This document shows positions 32,750-55,272 of a stretch of 56,415 nucleotides of DNA, one piece after another (position 1 is the first letter of the stretch; each line of letters opens with the position of its first letter). This DNA comes from a virus. Lineage: Duplodnaviria; Caudoviricetes. The notes beneath the pieces are model-generated. The model worked only from the letters and a program-made list of their open reading frames with translations, was not told the DNA's origin and ran no database searches. Position numbers and translations under genes: made by a program. The stretch covers positions 1-56,415 of IMG/VR virus record IMGVR_UViG_3300048572_000044. One strand, given 5' to 3'.

Positions 32750-34138
32750 TTATATGCCCACGTTAAATGTATATACATCAAAATATCTAGGAATACGAAC
32801 TCCACCACGCCAGCCATTCATTAAAGCTATTGTAGGTTGTGTAATCCCTTGAATTGTATTTGATGCCATACTATCAATAATTTGGAAAAATTTACCAGGT
32901 CTAGCATTTTGTAAACCACCATTTTGAGCAGCTAAACAATATGCGTATTCACCATAAGGTCCACCAAATTTATCAGTCTCAATTTTGATCCAGATTTGAT
33001 AATCAGGTAGAATGTAGTTAGTTGTGCCAGCAGTATACCCATTTGGATCATTTTCATCTGCAATATATGCGCTACCATCAACTAAGAAATCAACATCAAT
33101 ATCAGCTCCCAAGTAATAACTAGCAACGCTTTTCATACTATTTGGATTTGTACCAGCTTTTTGCATAATGGCATCTGAGTATTGTGTATTAACACGATTA
33201 ATTACAGTATCATTTTGTGAGAATAATGCAGACGTACTTGGGTTCATAATCCAAGTTTGCTTTAATCCACGATATTTTTTCAATAAATTATTAACAATTA
33301 CTGTCATATCAAGAATTGGATTTGATGCTGGATTAGGAACATAATTGGTTCCTGAAATTACTCCCCATACACCATTCAAAGCACCGGCGGTAAATCTATT
33401 ACCACTTGGAATACCATAACTTAATGATTCACCTTGCCAAATATAACTACCAGTAAATATAGCATTGTAAATATCATTTAAACGTCTAGTGCCACCACGA
33501 TGAGTTAATTGATCTGATATTTTGGCTATTACAGCAGCAATTCCACGAATAGCAAGATTTTGATTACCGGGATCACGTAAATTTAAAATTTCGTTTTGGT
33601 TAAATTGAGCCATTTCAATATAGAAAGGCGGCAACCATTCTTCAGTTTGAAATCCTCTTTTTTTAACCACTTGTACTGGAGCATCCATAGCATTAGCATG
33701 AGTCATACCAGTAATTGGTTGCCAAACATCCATAAATAATTTACTAGCAGAATATTCACCCTCTGGGAACATTTTTGCAATAACTTCATTTTCTACTACC
33801 GGAGTTACTTGTTCAATTACGCCTGTAATTAAACTCGTACCATCAAGATAATCGCTACCAGTAACGCCTAATTTAACATTTTGTGATTCAGATTTTAATC
33901 TAATATGTTCAGCAGCTAAAGTTCCAGATTTAGCAGAAAATTTCAAATTTACTCTACCTTCATTTTTTTCCTGTTCAGTATAAGGAACCATAATATCTCC
34001 GAGAGTTTTAAGTCCCATAGATTTTAAAACCTCTTCAACAGCAGCTTCTTTTTCTGAGGTTGATTTGAATTTAACAGCTTCTAGCAAAGGATTAACTTTT
34101 TTATGAACCTTTAAATGTTGCATTGAATTTTCTAACAT
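32750..34138 (-). CDS. major capsid protein with N-terminal extension
   Basis: Size; synteny after protease and decoration genes; capsid-E-like SNPILDM..WIMNP segment. Confidence 0.8.
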   Translation of the reverse strand: MLENSMQHLKVHKKVNPLLEAVKFKSTSEKEAAVEEVLKSMGLKTLGDIMVPYTEQEKNEGRVNLKFSAKSGTLAAEHIRLKSESQNVKLGVTGSDYLDGTSLITGVIEQVTPVVENEVIAKMFPEGEYSASKLFMDVWQPITGMTHANAMDAPVQVVKKRGFQTEEWLPPFYIEMAQFNQNEILNLRDPGNQNLAIRGIAAVIAKISDQLTHRGGTRRLNDIYNAIFTGSYIWQGESLSYGIPSGNRFTAGALNGVWGVISGTNYVPNPASNPILDMTVIVNNLLKKYRGLKQTWIMNPSTSALFSQNDTVINRVNTQYSDAIMQKAGTNPNSMKSVASYYLGADIDVDFLVDGSAYIADENDPNGYTAGTTNYILPDYQIWIKIETDKFGGPYGEYAYCLAAQNGGLQNARPGKFFQIIDSMASNTIQGITQPTIALMNGWRGGVRIPRYFDVYTFNVGI

Positions 34139-36001: not shown

Positions 36002-37682
36002 CAGTCACACTCCTTTTAGTATAATGGTCGCCAACTTCTTTACTATTTACTTTTTTATTATTATCCATTTTATCTTTTTTATCTTTTTCCAAATTACGTT
36101 TAATTAATGCGTTTAAACCTTCCTCATCTAATGTAGGTTCACCAAGTGTTTTGCGTACATGTTGAATATCTTTTTTATTAGTATTATCTAAATATCCATC
36201 ATTGGTCATACCCTCATATAATTTTTGATATTTTAATTTATCATCAATATTTTGTAATTCGGATTCAAAATATCCTAAATCTGTTGCATATGATTCACCA
36301 AAATTTTCTATAATTAAATATTTAACAACTTGATCTAATAGCACGTGCTGTACCATTTCCTCAGCAATACCGCCCATTAATTTAGTAAAAATACTATTTT
36401 GTGCTGTTGCTCCAGCAAATGTTGTTGCGGTACTAAAAATACCCTCTGGAACTAAATGTAATTTTTCTAAATCTGCATCATATTTAGTCAGTGCTTTTTC
36501 ATATACATCAAAATTACCGCTATTAGCCACTACTTCAATATCAAATAATTCACCTTTTCTGCCCGGCAATATCACAGCAGTATCTTCACTATATGTTTGC
36601 ATAACAGTATAAGCAGCTTCTACGGCATTAATATCTCCAGCACCTATGTTATATACGGCCTTATTAGCATCTGCATATACTACCACCATTGGATTAGCGC
36701 ATCTCCCCATAGCTGATTGGTAAAGCGCCCTTGCCACTTGTTTATTAATCCATATTGGATAACCTGCTTGTAAAATTGGATCACCGTATGGATTAATTTT
36801 TCCATTAGTTACTCCATACGCAAAATGCAATGTTTTTTTCTTTTCTAATTGAACCAAACCAAAAGTATTAATGAAATTAGTTCTGAATGGATAGTCCATG
36901 CTGCCCAATGAAGCTGCATTATCTAATCCAAATCCTATTCCACCATTCCAACTATTTACACCGCCAGAAAGACCACCAAATCCCCACCCGGTGCTTAATG
37001 CATTTTGAGTTCCCGTATATGGATAATTGTAAATATATTGCCAAATATTATCTATATCACCCTGCAAAGTTACAGTATATTGAATAGATACTTGGGGTAA
37101 ATGTCGAATATTTTCTATTATGGTGTATCCATTTTTATCTCGTATATCTTCCATAACCGCAACCCAATGTCCAAAATGAATTGCTGTGCATATTTTTCGC
37201 ACTAATCCATCTCTGCCCCCTTTTAAGCATTTAAAAGCATAACGTATGAATTTTTGTATTTTTGCTGTTTCATTGTAATATTCACCAATTCTATTAACAA
37301 TATCTGAAATCATTAATGTTTGACATCTGGCAATAATATCGTCTGTATCAACCATTTTTTTAAATGTAGATGGATTAATTGGACATGGATTAACAAGAAA
37401 ATTGCCAGTAATTGTTGATATAAAAGGTATTGAAGTTCCTTTTTTAGCTTTAGTTAAATCTCCAATTCCTAAAAAATTCTTAAATACATCCCTATTACTT
37501 TCATCTAATAAATGCTCCCCACTAGTAATTAAATTCTTTATTTGTTCTTTAAAAGATACTGTTTTATTAACTGGTATTATTATTTTCCCTAAATCTACTC
37601 TAGGGATTTTATTGTCTTTTTGCTGAACCAAAGAATCTTTGGGCGTAGCTGTTTTTGCTTGATAACGCTTGTTTTTTTTCAT
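35994..37682 (-). CDS. portal protein (Mu gp29/DUF935-like)
   Basis: AIHFGHWV, NPYGDPILQAGYPIW..K, LIIENFG; follows the terminase. Confidence 0.85.
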   Translation of the reverse strand: MKKNKRYQAKTATPKDSLVQQKDNKIPRVDLGKIIIPVNKTVSFKEQIKNLITSGEHLLDESNRDVFKNFLGIGDLTKAKKGTSIPFISTITGNFLVNPCPINPSTFKKMVDTDDIIARCQTLMISDIVNRIGEYYNETAKIQKFIRYAFKCLKGGRDGLVRKICTAIHFGHWVAVMEDIRDKNGYTIIENIRHLPQVSIQYTVTLQGDIDNIWQYIYNYPYTGTQNALSTGWGFGGLSGGVNSWNGGIGFGLDNAASLGSMDYPFRTNFINTFGLVQLEKKKTLHFAYGVTNGKINPYGDPILQAGYPIWINKQVARALYQSAMGRCANPMVVVYADANKAVYNIGAGDINAVEAAYTVMQTYSEDTAVILPGRKGELFDIEVVANSGNFDVYEKALTKYDADLEKLHLVPEGIFSTATTFAGATAQNSIFTKLMGGIAEEMVQHVLLDQVVKYLIIENFGESYATDLGYFESELQNIDDKLKYQKLYEGMTNDGYLDNTNKKDIQHVRKTLGEPTLDEEGLNALIKRNLEKDKKDKMDNNKKVNSKEVGDHYTKRSVTDV

Positions 37683-39309
37683 AACTATTTCCCATAAATG
37701 GAGTACTAATTTTTGTTAATCCATTACCTAAATTAAATTCATTTTTGATTGAATAATCAAATCTTGATAATTGTATTGGTTCTAATAAAGCTTTATATTC
37801 GATAAAGGCTTGTGACGTAGCATCAACACAATCATCTTTTCCACCATCAAAACCATCAAATGATAAAAATTGATTAATATATAATTGAATTGACGGATAA
37901 ATCCGAGGGGATGGTAAATAAAATTGTCCAGCTCTGCAATATGGAATCATATTTTGTGCGCGGAATAATTTACCATTATCGCCTTTGTTATATCCTTGAG
38001 GTACAAATTTATTAAGTTTACTTACGCCCTCAAATTGCATTAATGTTACAATGTCTTCACCTTGTGCTGCATCTTCAATCAATATTGCATAATAATTAGG
38101 ATATTTTTGTCTAAAGATATTAATTCTATTAATATTATCTATAATATCTACTTTATTAATAGCCGAATAATCTAATAAATAAACTTTGTCTCTATCAAAT
38201 CCTAATACTACAATTGCACAATCATCACCTTTTTTGGCGGCTTTTTTATAATTTGGGTCAACACTAATAATTATTCTCATATTATCAATATTTGGCATTA
38301 CGTCATAATATCTAAAACATGTAACATCAAATATTTGTCCAGTAGTTAGCATTGGCAAATTCTGATGTTTAACTGCCCATAATTGTGGACTTAATGCTTG
38401 TTGCTCTAAATACGTATCCATTTTTTGTTCTGGCCATAGATATTCACCAACTTTTCGTGGGTCATATGGATAATCCCGATCATCTTTTAGGCTATTAAAT
38501 TCTATTAATTTCCATTCAGGCGCATTAGGTGCAATTTTGGGTTTATCTTTGATATATTGTCTTAATTTACCATTTATATCTTCTGGATGCCACCATGTAC
38601 AAAATACGATAATAATTACATTTTTTTGCTGACGAGATAAAATATTACCAACAAATATATTCCATCGTTTTTCTCTAGTTATTTCACTAGAAGCTTCTTC
38701 CCATCCATTAAAAGGATCATCCACAATAATTACATCTGCATCAAAACCAGTAATAGAACCGGTTATACCAACGGCTTTAAATTCGCCTGTTTTACCGGGT
38801 TTAGGACTATTAGCATTAGTAAAATTATTTACAGAAAGCTTATTGGTTCTTTTTTCAGCTAATCTAGTATCATGAACATCATCAGGTAATTTAAAATTAG
38901 GAAATAATTGTGCATATTCTTTACTTGCCATAATATCTAATATTTCAGCAGATGGTTCTTTAGCGCGAGTATCAGAATAGGTAATATAAAGAAATTTCCA
39001 ATTTGGATTTTTACCCATTAAATAAGGTACATATAATCTTGCTGCACACTCCGTTTTGCCGTGCTGGTCGCCAATTGCCAGAAGCAATCTACCACTTTTT
39101 TTATTAGCAATATCATTCAATTCATTTATAGTATATTGATGAAACCAGGCCCATTTATAAGTTGGTCGTATTGCTTTACAAAAAGAATAATAATCTTTTG
39201 TTTTAATTTCACGAGTTAATTTAGCAAATTCTTGTAATTCAAAATGAGTAAGAGAGATTCCACTTTCTTTTTTCTTAAGTAATTCTGCTAATTTACCGTA
39301 GTCAATCAT
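37609..39309 (-). CDS. terL: terminase large subunit
   Basis: QHGKT Walker A, GSITGFDADVIIVDDP Walker B, TWWHPED, SVDP and DDCVDATSQ nuclease motifs; start placed at the TAATG overlap at 39309. Confidence 0.92.
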   Translation of the reverse strand: MIDYGKLAELLKKKESGISLTHFELQEFAKLTREIKTKDYYSFCKAIRPTYKWAWFHQYTINELNDIANKKSGRLLLAIGDQHGKTECAARLYVPYLMGKNPNWKFLYITYSDTRAKEPSAEILDIMASKEYAQLFPNFKLPDDVHDTRLAEKRTNKLSVNNFTNANSPKPGKTGEFKAVGITGSITGFDADVIIVDDPFNGWEEASSEITREKRWNIFVGNILSRQQKNVIIIVFCTWWHPEDINGKLRQYIKDKPKIAPNAPEWKLIEFNSLKDDRDYPYDPRKVGEYLWPEQKMDTYLEQQALSPQLWAVKHQNLPMLTTGQIFDVTCFRYYDVMPNIDNMRIIISVDPNYKKAAKKGDDCAIVVLGFDRDKVYLLDYSAINKVDIIDNINRINIFRQKYPNYYAILIEDAAQGEDIVTLMQFEGVSKLNKFVPQGYNKGDNGKLFRAQNMIPYCRAGQFYLPSPRIYPSIQLYINQFLSFDGFDGGKDDCVDATSQAFIEYKALLEPIQLSRFDYSIKNEFNLGNGLTKISTPFMGNSYEKKQALSSKNSYAQRFFGSAKRQ

Positions 39310-39581
39310 TATGGAATCGCATTTAGAACTATCCAATCATCTGCAATAAATAAATCAGTATTATTTATACCAATATCTGATGTGTCTCCTATTGTTATTG
39401 TTCCAGTTACAATATTAAAATATAAGATTGGAACATTTAATTGTGGGTTAACATCAGTTATATATGGCAAATAATATTCATATCTAGTTAATTGCGCTAT
39501 AACACCATTAGATAAATCTATAGTCGGAGTTGGCAACAATAGATCAGCAAGAGCGGTTTGTAGAGTATATGTTGGTGGCAT
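39309..39581 (-). CDS. hypothetical (possibly virion) protein
   Basis: Coupled to terL; C-terminal DLFIADDWIV. Confidence 0.6.
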   Translation of the reverse strand: MPPTYTLQTALADLLLPTPTIDLSNGVIAQLTRYEYYLPYITDVNPQLNVPILYFNIVTGTITIGDTSDIGINNTDLFIADDWIVLNAIP

Positions 39582-39781
39582 TATAATTTTCCTGTAAATA
39601 AAAATTTAATTCTTTGTAATAATGAAAAGGATTTTTGTTTTATTTTCATTAGTGCAATATCTTCCAATTCATCTATAAGTTCTGTAGTATCAATCTCATA
39701 ATACATATAATCTGGATTAGTTAATGTGATTTCATCTGCCAATTTAATAAATTGATTATTTTTAAAAACAGCATATTTCAT
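39581..39781 (-). CDS. hypothetical protein
   Basis: Coupled ORF ending LLQRIKFLFTGKL. Confidence 0.6.
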   Translation of the reverse strand: MKYAVFKNNQFIKLADEITLTNPDYMYYEIDTTELIDELEDIALMKIKQKSFSLLQRIKFLFTGKL

Positions 39782-39945
39782 TTTTTATCTTTCATCATAT
39801 TTTTAAATATAGTCATAATATATGCCCAATCTTCTTTAAAGCCCTCTTTTGCCGCCTGGGCTTTAGCTTCTTCCCATTTAGCCTCAGCATGCTCTTTTGA
39901 TACACCATGTTTTTCTGCTTCTTTTTTAATTACTGGTACTGGCAT
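39778..39945 (-). CDS. small helical protein (55 aa, not in the ORF track)
   Basis: MPVPVIKKEAEKHGVSKEHAEAKWEEAK...; AAGGAG RBS; ATGA overlap with the next gene. Confidence 0.75.
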   Translation of the reverse strand: MPVPVIKKEAEKHGVSKEHAEAKWEEAKAQAAKEGFKEDWAYIMTIFKNMMKDKK

Positions 39946-54853: not shown

Positions 54854-55078
54854 ATGCAAGGCAAAAGAACCGATTTAGAATATGATAAAATAATAAAATA
54901 TGTTATTAAAAAACAACCCATTTCAATAACTGATTTACATATTCATTTATGTGTAAAGTATGGATTGAAATTAACGAATAGTAGGAGCCATTTAATTAAA
55001 AGATTAGAAGATAAAAATTTAATTAAACGTATTGGTAAAAGATATGGCAATACTAGTGTATTTATTGGTATTACATAA
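54854..55078 (+). CDS. small winged-helix-like DNA-binding protein
   Basis: QGKRTDL; DKIIKYV..ISITDL..IKRLEDKNLI. Confidence 0.6.
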   Translation: MQGKRTDLEYDKIIKYVIKKQPISITDLHIHLCVKYGLKLTNSRSHLIKRLEDKNLIKRIGKRYGNTSVFIGIT

Positions 55079-55080
55079 AA

Positions 55081-55272
55081 AGGTGAAAGAGCCAAGGATT
55101 TGCACCTTGGACGATAACTATAGGCGTGTACCGACGCCTTGTTTTACTTTCTACTCCTGTGTTCTCACGACCTTGGCTATAGTCAGTTACTTACTTAAAA
55201 GTAGGTTTTCCCCAGCGGCAACCTGTAGAAACTAGTTTATCTGATTAACATTCCCTTCTCTGTCACTCTTTC
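55081..55272 (-). ncRNA. 192-nt tRNA-like RNA D with a large multibranched insert
   Basis: GAAAGAG(T)/(G)CTCTTTC acceptor; GACA/TGTT D-like arm; CAAGG-TGCAAAT-CCTTG T arm; ACCT end; internal stems GATAA-CTA/TAG-TTATC, TTTCTAC/GTAGAAA, AGGTT/AACCT, AGGCGT/ACGCCT. Confidence 0.75.

Follow-up and report, generated by a model that had tools for sequence, protein, structure and literature searches.

Near one end of the virus genome recorded as IMGVR_UViG_3300048572_000044 lies an RNA gene whose ends resemble those of a tRNA and whose middle does not, which raises the question of what kind of RNA this is and what it carries. The window analyzed here is the complete IMG/VR virus record of 56,415 base pairs (bp), with a G+C content (GC) of ~32%, and the gene occupies 191 nucleotides (nt) of the minus strand, from position 55272 to 55082, in the tRNA-gene region of the window. 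Its tRNA-like ends (a 7-bp acceptor, a D-like hairpin, a T arm and a 3' A-C-C) surround a domain of ~121 nt that replaces the anticodon arm. An earlier note, made from the letters of the window, had described tRNA-like ends enclosing such a domain and suggested a distinct structured noncoding RNA carried on a tRNA scaffold; the ends are there on the minus strand, the acceptor forming 7 of 7 pairs, and every helix that the note named lies where it had placed it. We consider it on balance probable, though far from assured, that the gene encodes a composite stable RNA of ~191 nt in which a cargo, the working part, is held in a scaffold derived from tRNA-Leu and matured by tRNA enzymes.

The cargo family was gathered by searching IMG/VR for the exact 20-nt sequence of one hairpin of the insert (P3), which occurs in 28 contigs with GC from 39 to 69% as well as in the Arthrobacter phages Kumotta and QuinnAvery. 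These 28 contigs show a domain of ~125–140 nt with its elements in the same order as in the window insert: an outer helix P1, P2, P3, a variable P4, a joiner ending in AGCCAAGG, P5, GGAG, the return strand of P2, TAAGAAC or TAAAAC, the PD hairpin and the return strand of P1. P3 is a GGTT...AACC hairpin with a 12-nt loop and the consensus of PD is GGCG-N-CGGYAC-N-CGCC. Among the contigs of sequencing runs, one of 151 nt has 30 nt of the insert in common with the window, between flanks that are divergent but alignable. An alignment (A1) of 26 sequences, comprising the window, 23 IMG/VR loci, Kumotta and QuinnAvery, was built after leaving out L063, L065 and L074 (large insertions in P4), L057 (cut off) and L069 (a duplicate of L056). 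In it 90.2% of the cells pair, against 39–46% when the partner strands are slid, double changes occur in 26 of the 42 pairs, and the covariation score was matched by none of 500 shuffles. Covariation among homologs was one of the tests that the earlier note had set beforehand, and all six of the cargo helices it had drawn are helices of this covarying alignment. G-U pairs are common in A1, one U-G being invariant across 26 of 26 rows; because such pairs would read as A-C mismatches on the opposite strand, the modeled strand is the RNA strand.

A covariance model (R1) of 141 positions, made from 24 sequences with the window excluded, scores the window at 109.9 bits (E 1.5e-28) across all 141 positions, and gives 114.7 bits for L061, 115.2 for L074, 111.4 for L065 and 103.4 for L063. 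A scan of IMG/VR with a 14-mer of the joiner gave at least 120 matches; among the 80 loci listed were two known members (L051 and L052), and R1 matched none of the 78 new ones. Rfam returned no match to the family at any of six carrier loci, and for one member this held at E up to 10 as well. On this comparative evidence the cargo, with six helices and roughly 50 invariant nucleotides, is a conserved family of structured RNAs that is absent from Rfam 15.

Most members of the family possess a long outer helix of their own and have no tRNA part. In the subgroup with TAAAAC the place of this helix is taken by a cloverleaf frame, in which an outer stem of 5–14 bp is accompanied by two hairpins, one on the 5' side, after which TAATCA or GAATCG stands, and one on the 3' side. 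This frame is tRNA-like in L061, L068 and the window, which have a 7-bp acceptor stem and a 7-nt loop TGCAAAT or TGCAATT. The phage that carries L061 shows no TerL similarity to the window TerL, yet its RNA is 82% identical to that of the window, and the differences include compensatory changes in the acceptor, the D-like stem, P1, P2 and the T stem. The suggestion of a distinct RNA on a tRNA scaffold has thus held up from both sides: the insert belongs to a covariation-supported family found mostly without a tRNA part, and the cap recurs with other inserts.

That recurrence defines a second family. Scaffold genes were recognized by a 7-bp acceptor, T at position 8, a D arm, a cargo and a T arm of the form xxAAGG-TGCAAAT-CCTTxx; the window has all of these, with a D arm that has diverged from the GGCGGAATAGGTAGACGC type of 9 of the 12 members. 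The 19-mer of the window T arm occurs exactly at 24 IMG/VR loci and in 9 genome contigs. Six of the IMG/VR loci (five types) are scaffold genes, 17 form a GC-rich group and one is unclear, while five of the genome contigs hold scaffold genes and the other four look like chance matches in coding sequence. Each of the six IMG/VR scaffold loci has a complementary 7-bp acceptor, the T and a D arm of the GGCGGAATAGGTAGAC type, around inserts of ~50–170 nt that are mutually unrelated. Across 12 members the acceptor is paired at 7 of 7 positions with 11 different stem sequences, each then followed by T and a D arm, whereas strands that are not partners pair at a mean of 3.6 of 7 positions. R1 found no match in the other scaffold loci, hence their cargos differ from that of the window. 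ARAGORN calls no scaffold member a tRNA and, when introns are allowed, makes one doubtful call in 35 sequences; the exact 29-mer of T arm plus acceptor had no match in IMG/VR. The nucleotide at position -1, read by eye, is T in 7 of 11 scaffold genes, and bacterial RNase P favors U at this position. The nucleotide after the acceptor is A in the window, L016, L017, L024, L028, L046 and the phages PSA, LP-114, B025, EFP01 and phiFL2A, C in L061 and L041, G in L068, and T in L019 and L049.

Some observations on these loci stand apart. The GC-rich group (L018, L021–L023, L025, L027, L029–L036 and L038–L040) has the T-arm 19-mer ~100 nt past the stop codon of a conserved structural gene, preceded by a D-loop-like GGGGTAGAC, and no 5' acceptor strand was recognizable in any of the 17. 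The cargo of L028 (~170 nt) and a stretch immediately ahead of the L041 scaffold gene both contain GAGCGTAGGG ... GTTGGTGAG; this element may be a further RNA module occurring both inside and beside the scaffold.

The scaffold extends to cultured phages. A short BLAST search with T arm plus acceptor matched 53 records of phages of Listeria (27), Enterococcus (14), Erwinia (4), Brochothrix (4), Halogranum (2), Mycobacterium (1) and Paenibacillus (1), with individual E-values of 0.3–3. Seven records were inspected, and six hold the scaffold with the T arm GCAAGG-TGCAAAT-CCTTGC: Listeria phages PSA, LP-114 and B025, Enterococcus phages EFP01 and phiFL2A and Brochothrix phage ADU4; the seventh, Paenibacillus phage Pd_22F, is at most a candidate. 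In phiFL2A there is almost no cargo and the whole RNA measures ~60 nt, and the other five carry 37–130 nt of differing cargo. These genes are unannotated or overlapped by a small "hypothetical" coding sequence, and they have no ARAGORN call and no Rfam match at E up to 1. B025 forms a bridge between the two families, since it combines the scaffold and a canonical D arm with TAATCAG, P1, P2, a different interior, TAAAAC, PD, the return of P1 and the T arm. As to PSA, the scaffold RNA (L199, Listeria phage PSA 36403–36983) is intergenic, flanked by Rfam matches to rli62 (100 bits) and to the mcrA RNA motif (73 bits). One can draw its short cargo as a variable arm next to an anticodon-like arm that reads GAG, but neither ARAGORN nor Rfam calls the RNA a tRNA.

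The same exchange of interiors is seen at the locus itself. Searching IMG/VR with the window TerL (37609–39336; the major head protein is at 32750–34138) found a single relative, G001, whose TerL is ~70% identical. The corresponding region of G001 keeps a tRNA-Glu and a long hairpin, and of the RNA only the 3' remnant CCTTTC-CTCTTTCACC followed by a T run. A metagenome contig, L016, has an RNA at the same locus whose first 9 nt and last 30 nt are identical to those of the window around a different interior of ~110 nt; its D arm is of the canonical class-II type (TGGCCGAATAGGTAGACGC), and a BLAST search of its cargo against cultured phages gave no match. Taken together, G001 and L016 indicate that at this locus the interior is replaced or lost and the ends stay the same. 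Contigs of three of four sequencing runs compared are identical to the window across the RNA, that is, show no strain variation there. A separate feature of G001 is a 928-amino-acid (aa) frame (C1:23875–26649) that matches the window TerL in two pieces ~1 kb apart, which suggests an in-frame insertion, possibly an intein.

Read along the minus strand, the RNA begins with the acceptor strand GAAAGAG (55266–55272), with T at -1 and at position 8, which forms 7 of 7 pairs with 55085–55091; the stem is identical in L016 and has compensatory versions in L061, L068 and nine further scaffold members. The D-like hairpin (55247–55264) has a GACA/TGTT stem, in which L061 shows two double changes, and a loop GAGAAGGGAA containing GG; a class-II tRNA-type D arm stands in its position in L016 and B025. 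The conserved linker AATCAG (55241–55246), TAATCA or GAATCG in relatives, is also found in L061, L058, L055, L060, L053, Achromobacter phage JWDelta and B025, and in the GAATCG form in L064 and L068. P1 closes the cargo at the place of an anticodon stem: its 5' strand GATAA(A)CTA (55233–55241) pairs with TAGTTATC (55113–55120) in both the family alignment and the window fold, and 8 of 8 pairs show double changes. Within it, P2 joins TTTCTAC (55225–55231) to GTAGAAA (55148–55154), with double changes in 7 of 8 pairs, and encloses P3 (GGTT-GCCGCTGGGGAA-AACC, 55204–55223), P4 and P5. P4 (TACTT/AAGTA, 55188–55203) is the variable hairpin, its length differing between members and 7 of 7 pairs showing double changes. 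The single-stranded joiner that follows (55171–55187) corresponds to invariant or near-invariant columns of the alignment, and P5 (GTG/CAC, 55159–55168) has two covarying pairs, GC to AU and CG to UA. The segment 55140–55157 is made up of the invariant GGAG, the P2 3' strand and the joiner GTAAAAC (55140–55147).

The PD hairpin AGGCGT-CGGTAC-ACGCCT (55122–55139) also has two covarying pairs. Its loop is complementary to GCCG of the P3 loop, and the two loops probably touch; the variation in this pairing (GCCG with CGGY) is from GC to GU only, in 10 and 1 of 26 rows. Two linker bases separate the 3' strand of P1 from the T arm CCAAGG-TGCAAAT-CCTTGG (55092–55110), of which stem-compensated versions occur in L061, L068 and the Listeria and Enterococcus phages. 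With a T stem of 5–6 bp and a loop of 7 nt, the acceptor and adjoining T arm conform to those of a tRNA, although the second position of the T loop is G here and T in the tRNA-Glu of the window. The RNA ends with the acceptor strand CTCTTTC (55085–55091) and A-C-C, followed by a T run (55082–55091 for strand and end), the part that survives in G001.

The 3' end lies 3 nt from the stop codon of a converging plus-strand gene (54854–55078), and to this extent the gene is, as the earlier note had it, the last unit of an RNA operon; the operon itself is not continuous, for an 87-aa open reading frame (ORF; 55665–55402) and a conserved long hairpin (55392–55312) separate the upstream tRNA-like units from the RNA. 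The ORF has no IMG/VR relatives and no Pfam match, and so may be no gene. Inside it the hairpin 55556–55536, with T runs on both strands, is terminator-like. The long hairpin, imperfect and on the minus strand (TGTACACAGCTTATAAC ... GTTATGAGTTGTGTGTA, then AAAATGATGA), is kept in G001 and L016 just upstream of the position of the RNA and has a weak Rfam rli51 match of 23 bits, below threshold. In L016 an extra stretch of ~270 nt (~2830–2570, minus strand) stands between this hairpin and the scaffold RNA; its motif TTTTGG..TGAGA.ATGATA.TGGTATAT is also found upstream of the scaffold gene of L049, and the stretch may be another unlisted phage RNA.

Between the tRNA-Glu (56058–55987) and the ORF lie three tRNA-like units on the minus strand, unit 2 (~55977–55906), unit 3 (55902–55794) and unit 4 (55791–55678), none with an ARAGORN or Rfam call. 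Units 3 and 4 end in A-CCA, with 8 nt separating T stem and discriminator. Orthologues of unit 3 in G001 (L003, ~1605–1790) and L016 (~3212–3072) have the same 8-bp acceptor, D arm and T arm, the 28-nt 3' part being identical in G001, around unrelated interiors of ~51 nt (window), 125 nt (G001) and 95 nt (L016); judged by these comparisons, unit 3 is a second scaffold with exchangeable inserts. In unit 4 one stem-loop can be read as an anticodon arm with GTA, and ~39 nt more precede the T arm; the unit lies between direct repeats of CCATCTTGCACC (55805–55794 and 55680–55669). G001 has no unit 4 and a single copy of the repeat, then the same TTTTTGGA, a pattern suggestive of either recombination at the 3' end of the tRNA or an insertion that duplicated its target. 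At the other end of the window, 48–131 on the minus strand, is an atypical 84-nt unit that ARAGORN calls "tRNA-Asn (att)", with the anticodon at position 37 and only 43.5 bits in Rfam.

ARAGORN and Rfam call three tRNAs in the window and none at the RNA; ARAGORN with introns of up to 300 nt finds no tRNA there, and Rfam, whether at gathering score or at E up to 10, gives nothing meaningful. The Rfam comparison had been proposed in the earlier note, and in particular no tRNA, intron or tmRNA match falls on the RNA. Known classes were rejected in turn. A canonical tRNA does not fit, as ~121 nt replace the anticodon arm. The note had set aside transfer-messenger RNA (tmRNA) for lack of a G3-U pair, rightly: position 3 is A-T where G3-U70 would stand, and ARAGORN in tmRNA mode gave no credible call, only a spurious permuted one elsewhere in the region. 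A short frame in the cargo that ends in a three-frame stop cluster was considered as a tag frame, and by eye is not kept in L016. A group I intron, also doubted in the note, is contradicted by the lack of an Rfam intron match, an insert of 121 nt, an anticodon loop that cannot be restored and the free-standing occurrence of the same domain in most carrier phages. The archaeal-type bulge-helix-bulge was sought by eye, with no dedicated program run, and only a 1-nt bulge in P1 was seen in the window and one 3-nt bulge, with no second, in L016. Y RNA or YrlA has the opposite topology; the 56-kb genome contains no TROVE match, and Rfam gave no Y RNA match. The phi29-type packaging RNA (pRNA; RF00044) gave no match at E up to 10, though complementary loops are present.

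From these results a mechanism can be proposed. In the window RNA the tRNA-Leu-derived cap replaces the simple outer helix of free-standing members, and would make the transcript a substrate for host tRNA maturation, with RNase P acting at the 5' end and trimming and CCA completion at the 3' end. The cap would also confer a tRNA-like resistance to decay, so that the cargo would accumulate as a discrete, abundant RNA acting in trans. We infer processing and stability from the architecture of engineered scaffolds, the T at -1 in 7 of 11 genes and the recurrence of the scaffold with different or almost no cargo. As for the cargo, its ~50 invariant nucleotides, its many unvarying unpaired bases and its spread over phages of very different hosts lead us to suspect catalysis or a partner that is universal: a small molecule, some conserved machine of the host, or the RNA itself as a ribozyme. 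A bolder version, which we advance tentatively and think less likely to be right than wrong, is that the dedicated tRNA-Leu-derived scaffold, with its TGCAAAT T loop and covarying acceptor, is an exchangeable expression cassette for unrelated RNAs and that the cargo of the window represents a new, widespread class of phage ribozymes or aptamers; on this version it might serve during infection as an abundant binder of a universal host factor or signaling nucleotide.

Several findings weigh against a composite RNA processed and stabilized in this way. Neither a promoter-like site directly upstream of the RNA nor a terminator-like site at its 3' end was found, the terminator-like matches nearby being the plus-strand reading of the PD hairpin (55122–55139) and the hairpin in the upstream ORF (55556–55536). 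The minimum free energy of the RNA, -49.2 kcal/mol, is unremarkable (z = -1.30; 20 of 200 shuffles fold equally well), and the case for an RNA therefore rests on comparison with other sequences. All of the 24 listed sequencing runs that hold the stretch are other than RNA. The RNA is evidently dispensable, as the closest complete relative, G001, lacks it save for the 3' remnant. Given the G at the second T-loop position and the variation in the nucleotide that follows the acceptor, it is not certain that every tRNA enzyme would recognize the RNA. The invariance of P3, and part of the overall invariance, follows from finding members by the exact P3 20-mer. Finally, no conserved neighbor gene emerged among 29 scanned neighbors. 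Against the rest of the phage genome, the RNA has complementarity of at most 12 nt, at E 0.5 or worse.

Among the alternatives, the one that survives best, though we hold it unlikely, makes the tRNA-like part the business end: a mimic of tRNA-Leu that is charged as tmRNA is, to act on the ribosome or donate its amino acid, with the cargo modulating or targeting it. The topology is indeed tmRNA-like, a class-II-type D arm is present in L016, B025, EFP01 and others, and the window and the further members listed above have A after the acceptor. Leucyl-tRNA synthetase does not read the anticodon. The nucleotide after the acceptor nevertheless varies in L061, L041, L068, L019 and L049, the 3' CCA is only partly encoded or absent, and G3-U70 is missing; the spurious call in tmRNA mode and the lack of a counterpart in L016 to the short cargo frame argue the same way, as do the free-standing cargo members, which have no acceptor end at all.

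It is also improbable that a tRNA-like gene served as the incidental insertion site of an RNA element that is self-cleaving, otherwise catalytic or mobile. The attractions of this reading are the extreme conservation of the core (an exact 20-mer in phages of 39–69% GC), cargos that differ between sister phages at one locus, the "empty" site of G001, and some of the neighbors of the family. An RtcB gene lies directly upstream in 2 of 9 upstream ORFs scanned, an HNH_3 gene directly downstream in 1 of 10 small neighbors scanned, and HNH endonuclease genes adjoin the motif in Kumotta, JWDelta, L075 and DevitoJr. HNH and RtcB neighbors remain a minority of the 28 loci, however; of the ten downstream ORFs scanned, six had no match, and the others matched a glycosyltransferase, an RNase H/exonuclease, a DNA ligase and, weakly, a TerL-like protein, one ORF each. 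Three of the 28 loci have tRNAs within 300 nt, and profiles of RtcB and TROVE (Ro) had no match in the window. No Rfam ribozyme or intron matches at E up to 10, the comparison with G001 reveals no target-site duplications flanking the RNA, and scaffold and cargo change together as a single unit when L061 is compared with the window.

The genomic position of the motif invites a link to packaging, either as a pRNA-like RNA that multimerizes through complementary loops or as a DNA-level signal near the genome end, a reading to which we give little credence. In cultured Arthrobacter phages the cargo is free-standing, unannotated and near the genome ends: at 39663–39784 of 40317 in Kumotta, 80 nt before an HNH gene, and at 680–799 in QuinnAvery, ahead of HTH, TerS and TerL genes. 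Weaker, frame-level relatives are the DevitoJr group (39.7 bits), with the motif at about 320–490, and JWDelta (18.5 bits). In cultured phages with defined ends the motif is thus 320–800 nt from the genome end, beside HNH and terminase genes; the complementarity of the P3 loop (GCCG) and PD loop (CGGC or CGGT), and the long helix formed by both ends, would also suit a pRNA. In the window, by contrast, TerL is 16 kb away, no phage pRNA of Rfam matches, and the motif, being absent from G001, is not essential for packaging. The strand-specific G-U pairs favor an RNA over a DNA site, and the loop-loop pairing varies between GC and GU with no double change.

Two further readings are disfavored, and we regard both as very improbable. 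In the first the gene is an intron-bearing tRNA from which removal of the insert would yield a working tRNA-Leu; the insert does lie at the place of the anticodon arm, closed by a helix, and RtcB, the protein-catalyzed tRNA-splicing ligase, adjoins two family members, but the window has no RtcB, a 7-nt anticodon loop with T at its second position cannot be restored there, ARAGORN with introns of up to 300 nt finds no tRNA at the gene and makes just the one doubtful call among the 35 scaffold loci, Rfam gives no group I or II match, and the domain is free-standing in most phages. The second, a decaying tRNA pseudogene with inserted junk and no function, could account for the loss in G001, the divergence of the D arm from the canonical form of L016 and the aberrant units 2–4, and is countered by compensatory changes in every helix of scaffold and cargo, the identity of the stretch in contigs of three further runs and a T arm and acceptor that are conserved while the flanks diverge.

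The comparison of sequences establishes the membership of the RNA in a family, its structure and the modular nature of its scaffold; its processing, stability and action in trans would follow if the composite-RNA reading is right. The analysis also points to two RNA families outside Rfam 15 that the annotators of the records missed, one of which is in places annotated as a gene for a small protein. As both are present in phages that are cultured and tractable (of Arthrobacter, Listeria, Enterococcus and Brochothrix), their function is directly testable. The complexity of the cargo is typical of ribozymes, riboswitch aptamers and RNAs that dock on core cellular machines, and its partner could reveal a new mode of host manipulation by phages. 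The literature searched on tRNA-like phage RNAs, T4 species 1 RNA, RtcB-linked RNAs, natural tRNA scaffolds and rli62 gave no description of the window RNA, and searching it for sequence strings of the RNA returned one coincidental terminator only. The cargo motif may be among the 10,006 candidate phage RNAs listed by Fremin et al. (2023; PMC10690425).

Among known systems, tmRNA (SsrA) offers a first likeness, for there too an acceptor stands next to a T arm, and a helix in the place of the anticodon stem connects to a large domain of several helices. The phage RNA differs in measuring ~190 nt, in being tRNA-Leu-like rather than tRNA-Ala-like, and in having no series of pseudoknots and no conserved tag frame; moreover, the cargo of the window also exists without a tRNA part. 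The tRNA cluster of phage T4 encodes, together with its tRNAs, the species 1 and 2 RNAs, stable non-tRNA RNAs that are matured by tRNA-processing enzymes; the likeness is one of description only, and T4 is absent from the BLAST matches. With the pRNA of phi29 the cargo has in common a length of ~120 nt, a helix in which its two ends pair, two loops with 4-nt complementarity and, in cultured carriers, a gene near the genome end. It differs from pRNA in having no Rfam match, in carriers that are not phi29-like, in being dispensable in a close relative and in being sometimes embedded in a tRNA scaffold. YrlA (Chen et al., 2014; PMC4201824) is a noncoding RNA with a tRNA-like module, found in bacteria and phages and sometimes near rtcB, some examples of which are cut by RNase P and receive CCA; as described there, the two ends of the RNA pair to make the stem that binds Ro, and a loop closes the "acceptor", which is the reverse of the topology found here. 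The closest architectural counterpart is man-made. In the engineered tRNA scaffold of Ponchon and co-workers (PMC3753655), a structured RNA replaces the anticodon arm and the tRNA ends provide processing and stability, the same architecture as that of the window RNA. The phage version occurs in nature, time and again among many phages, and has a dedicated scaffold whose T loop, TGCAAAT, is unusual; if our reading is correct, nature reached the "tRNA scaffold" trick of RNA engineers, and phages appear to swap the cargos within it.

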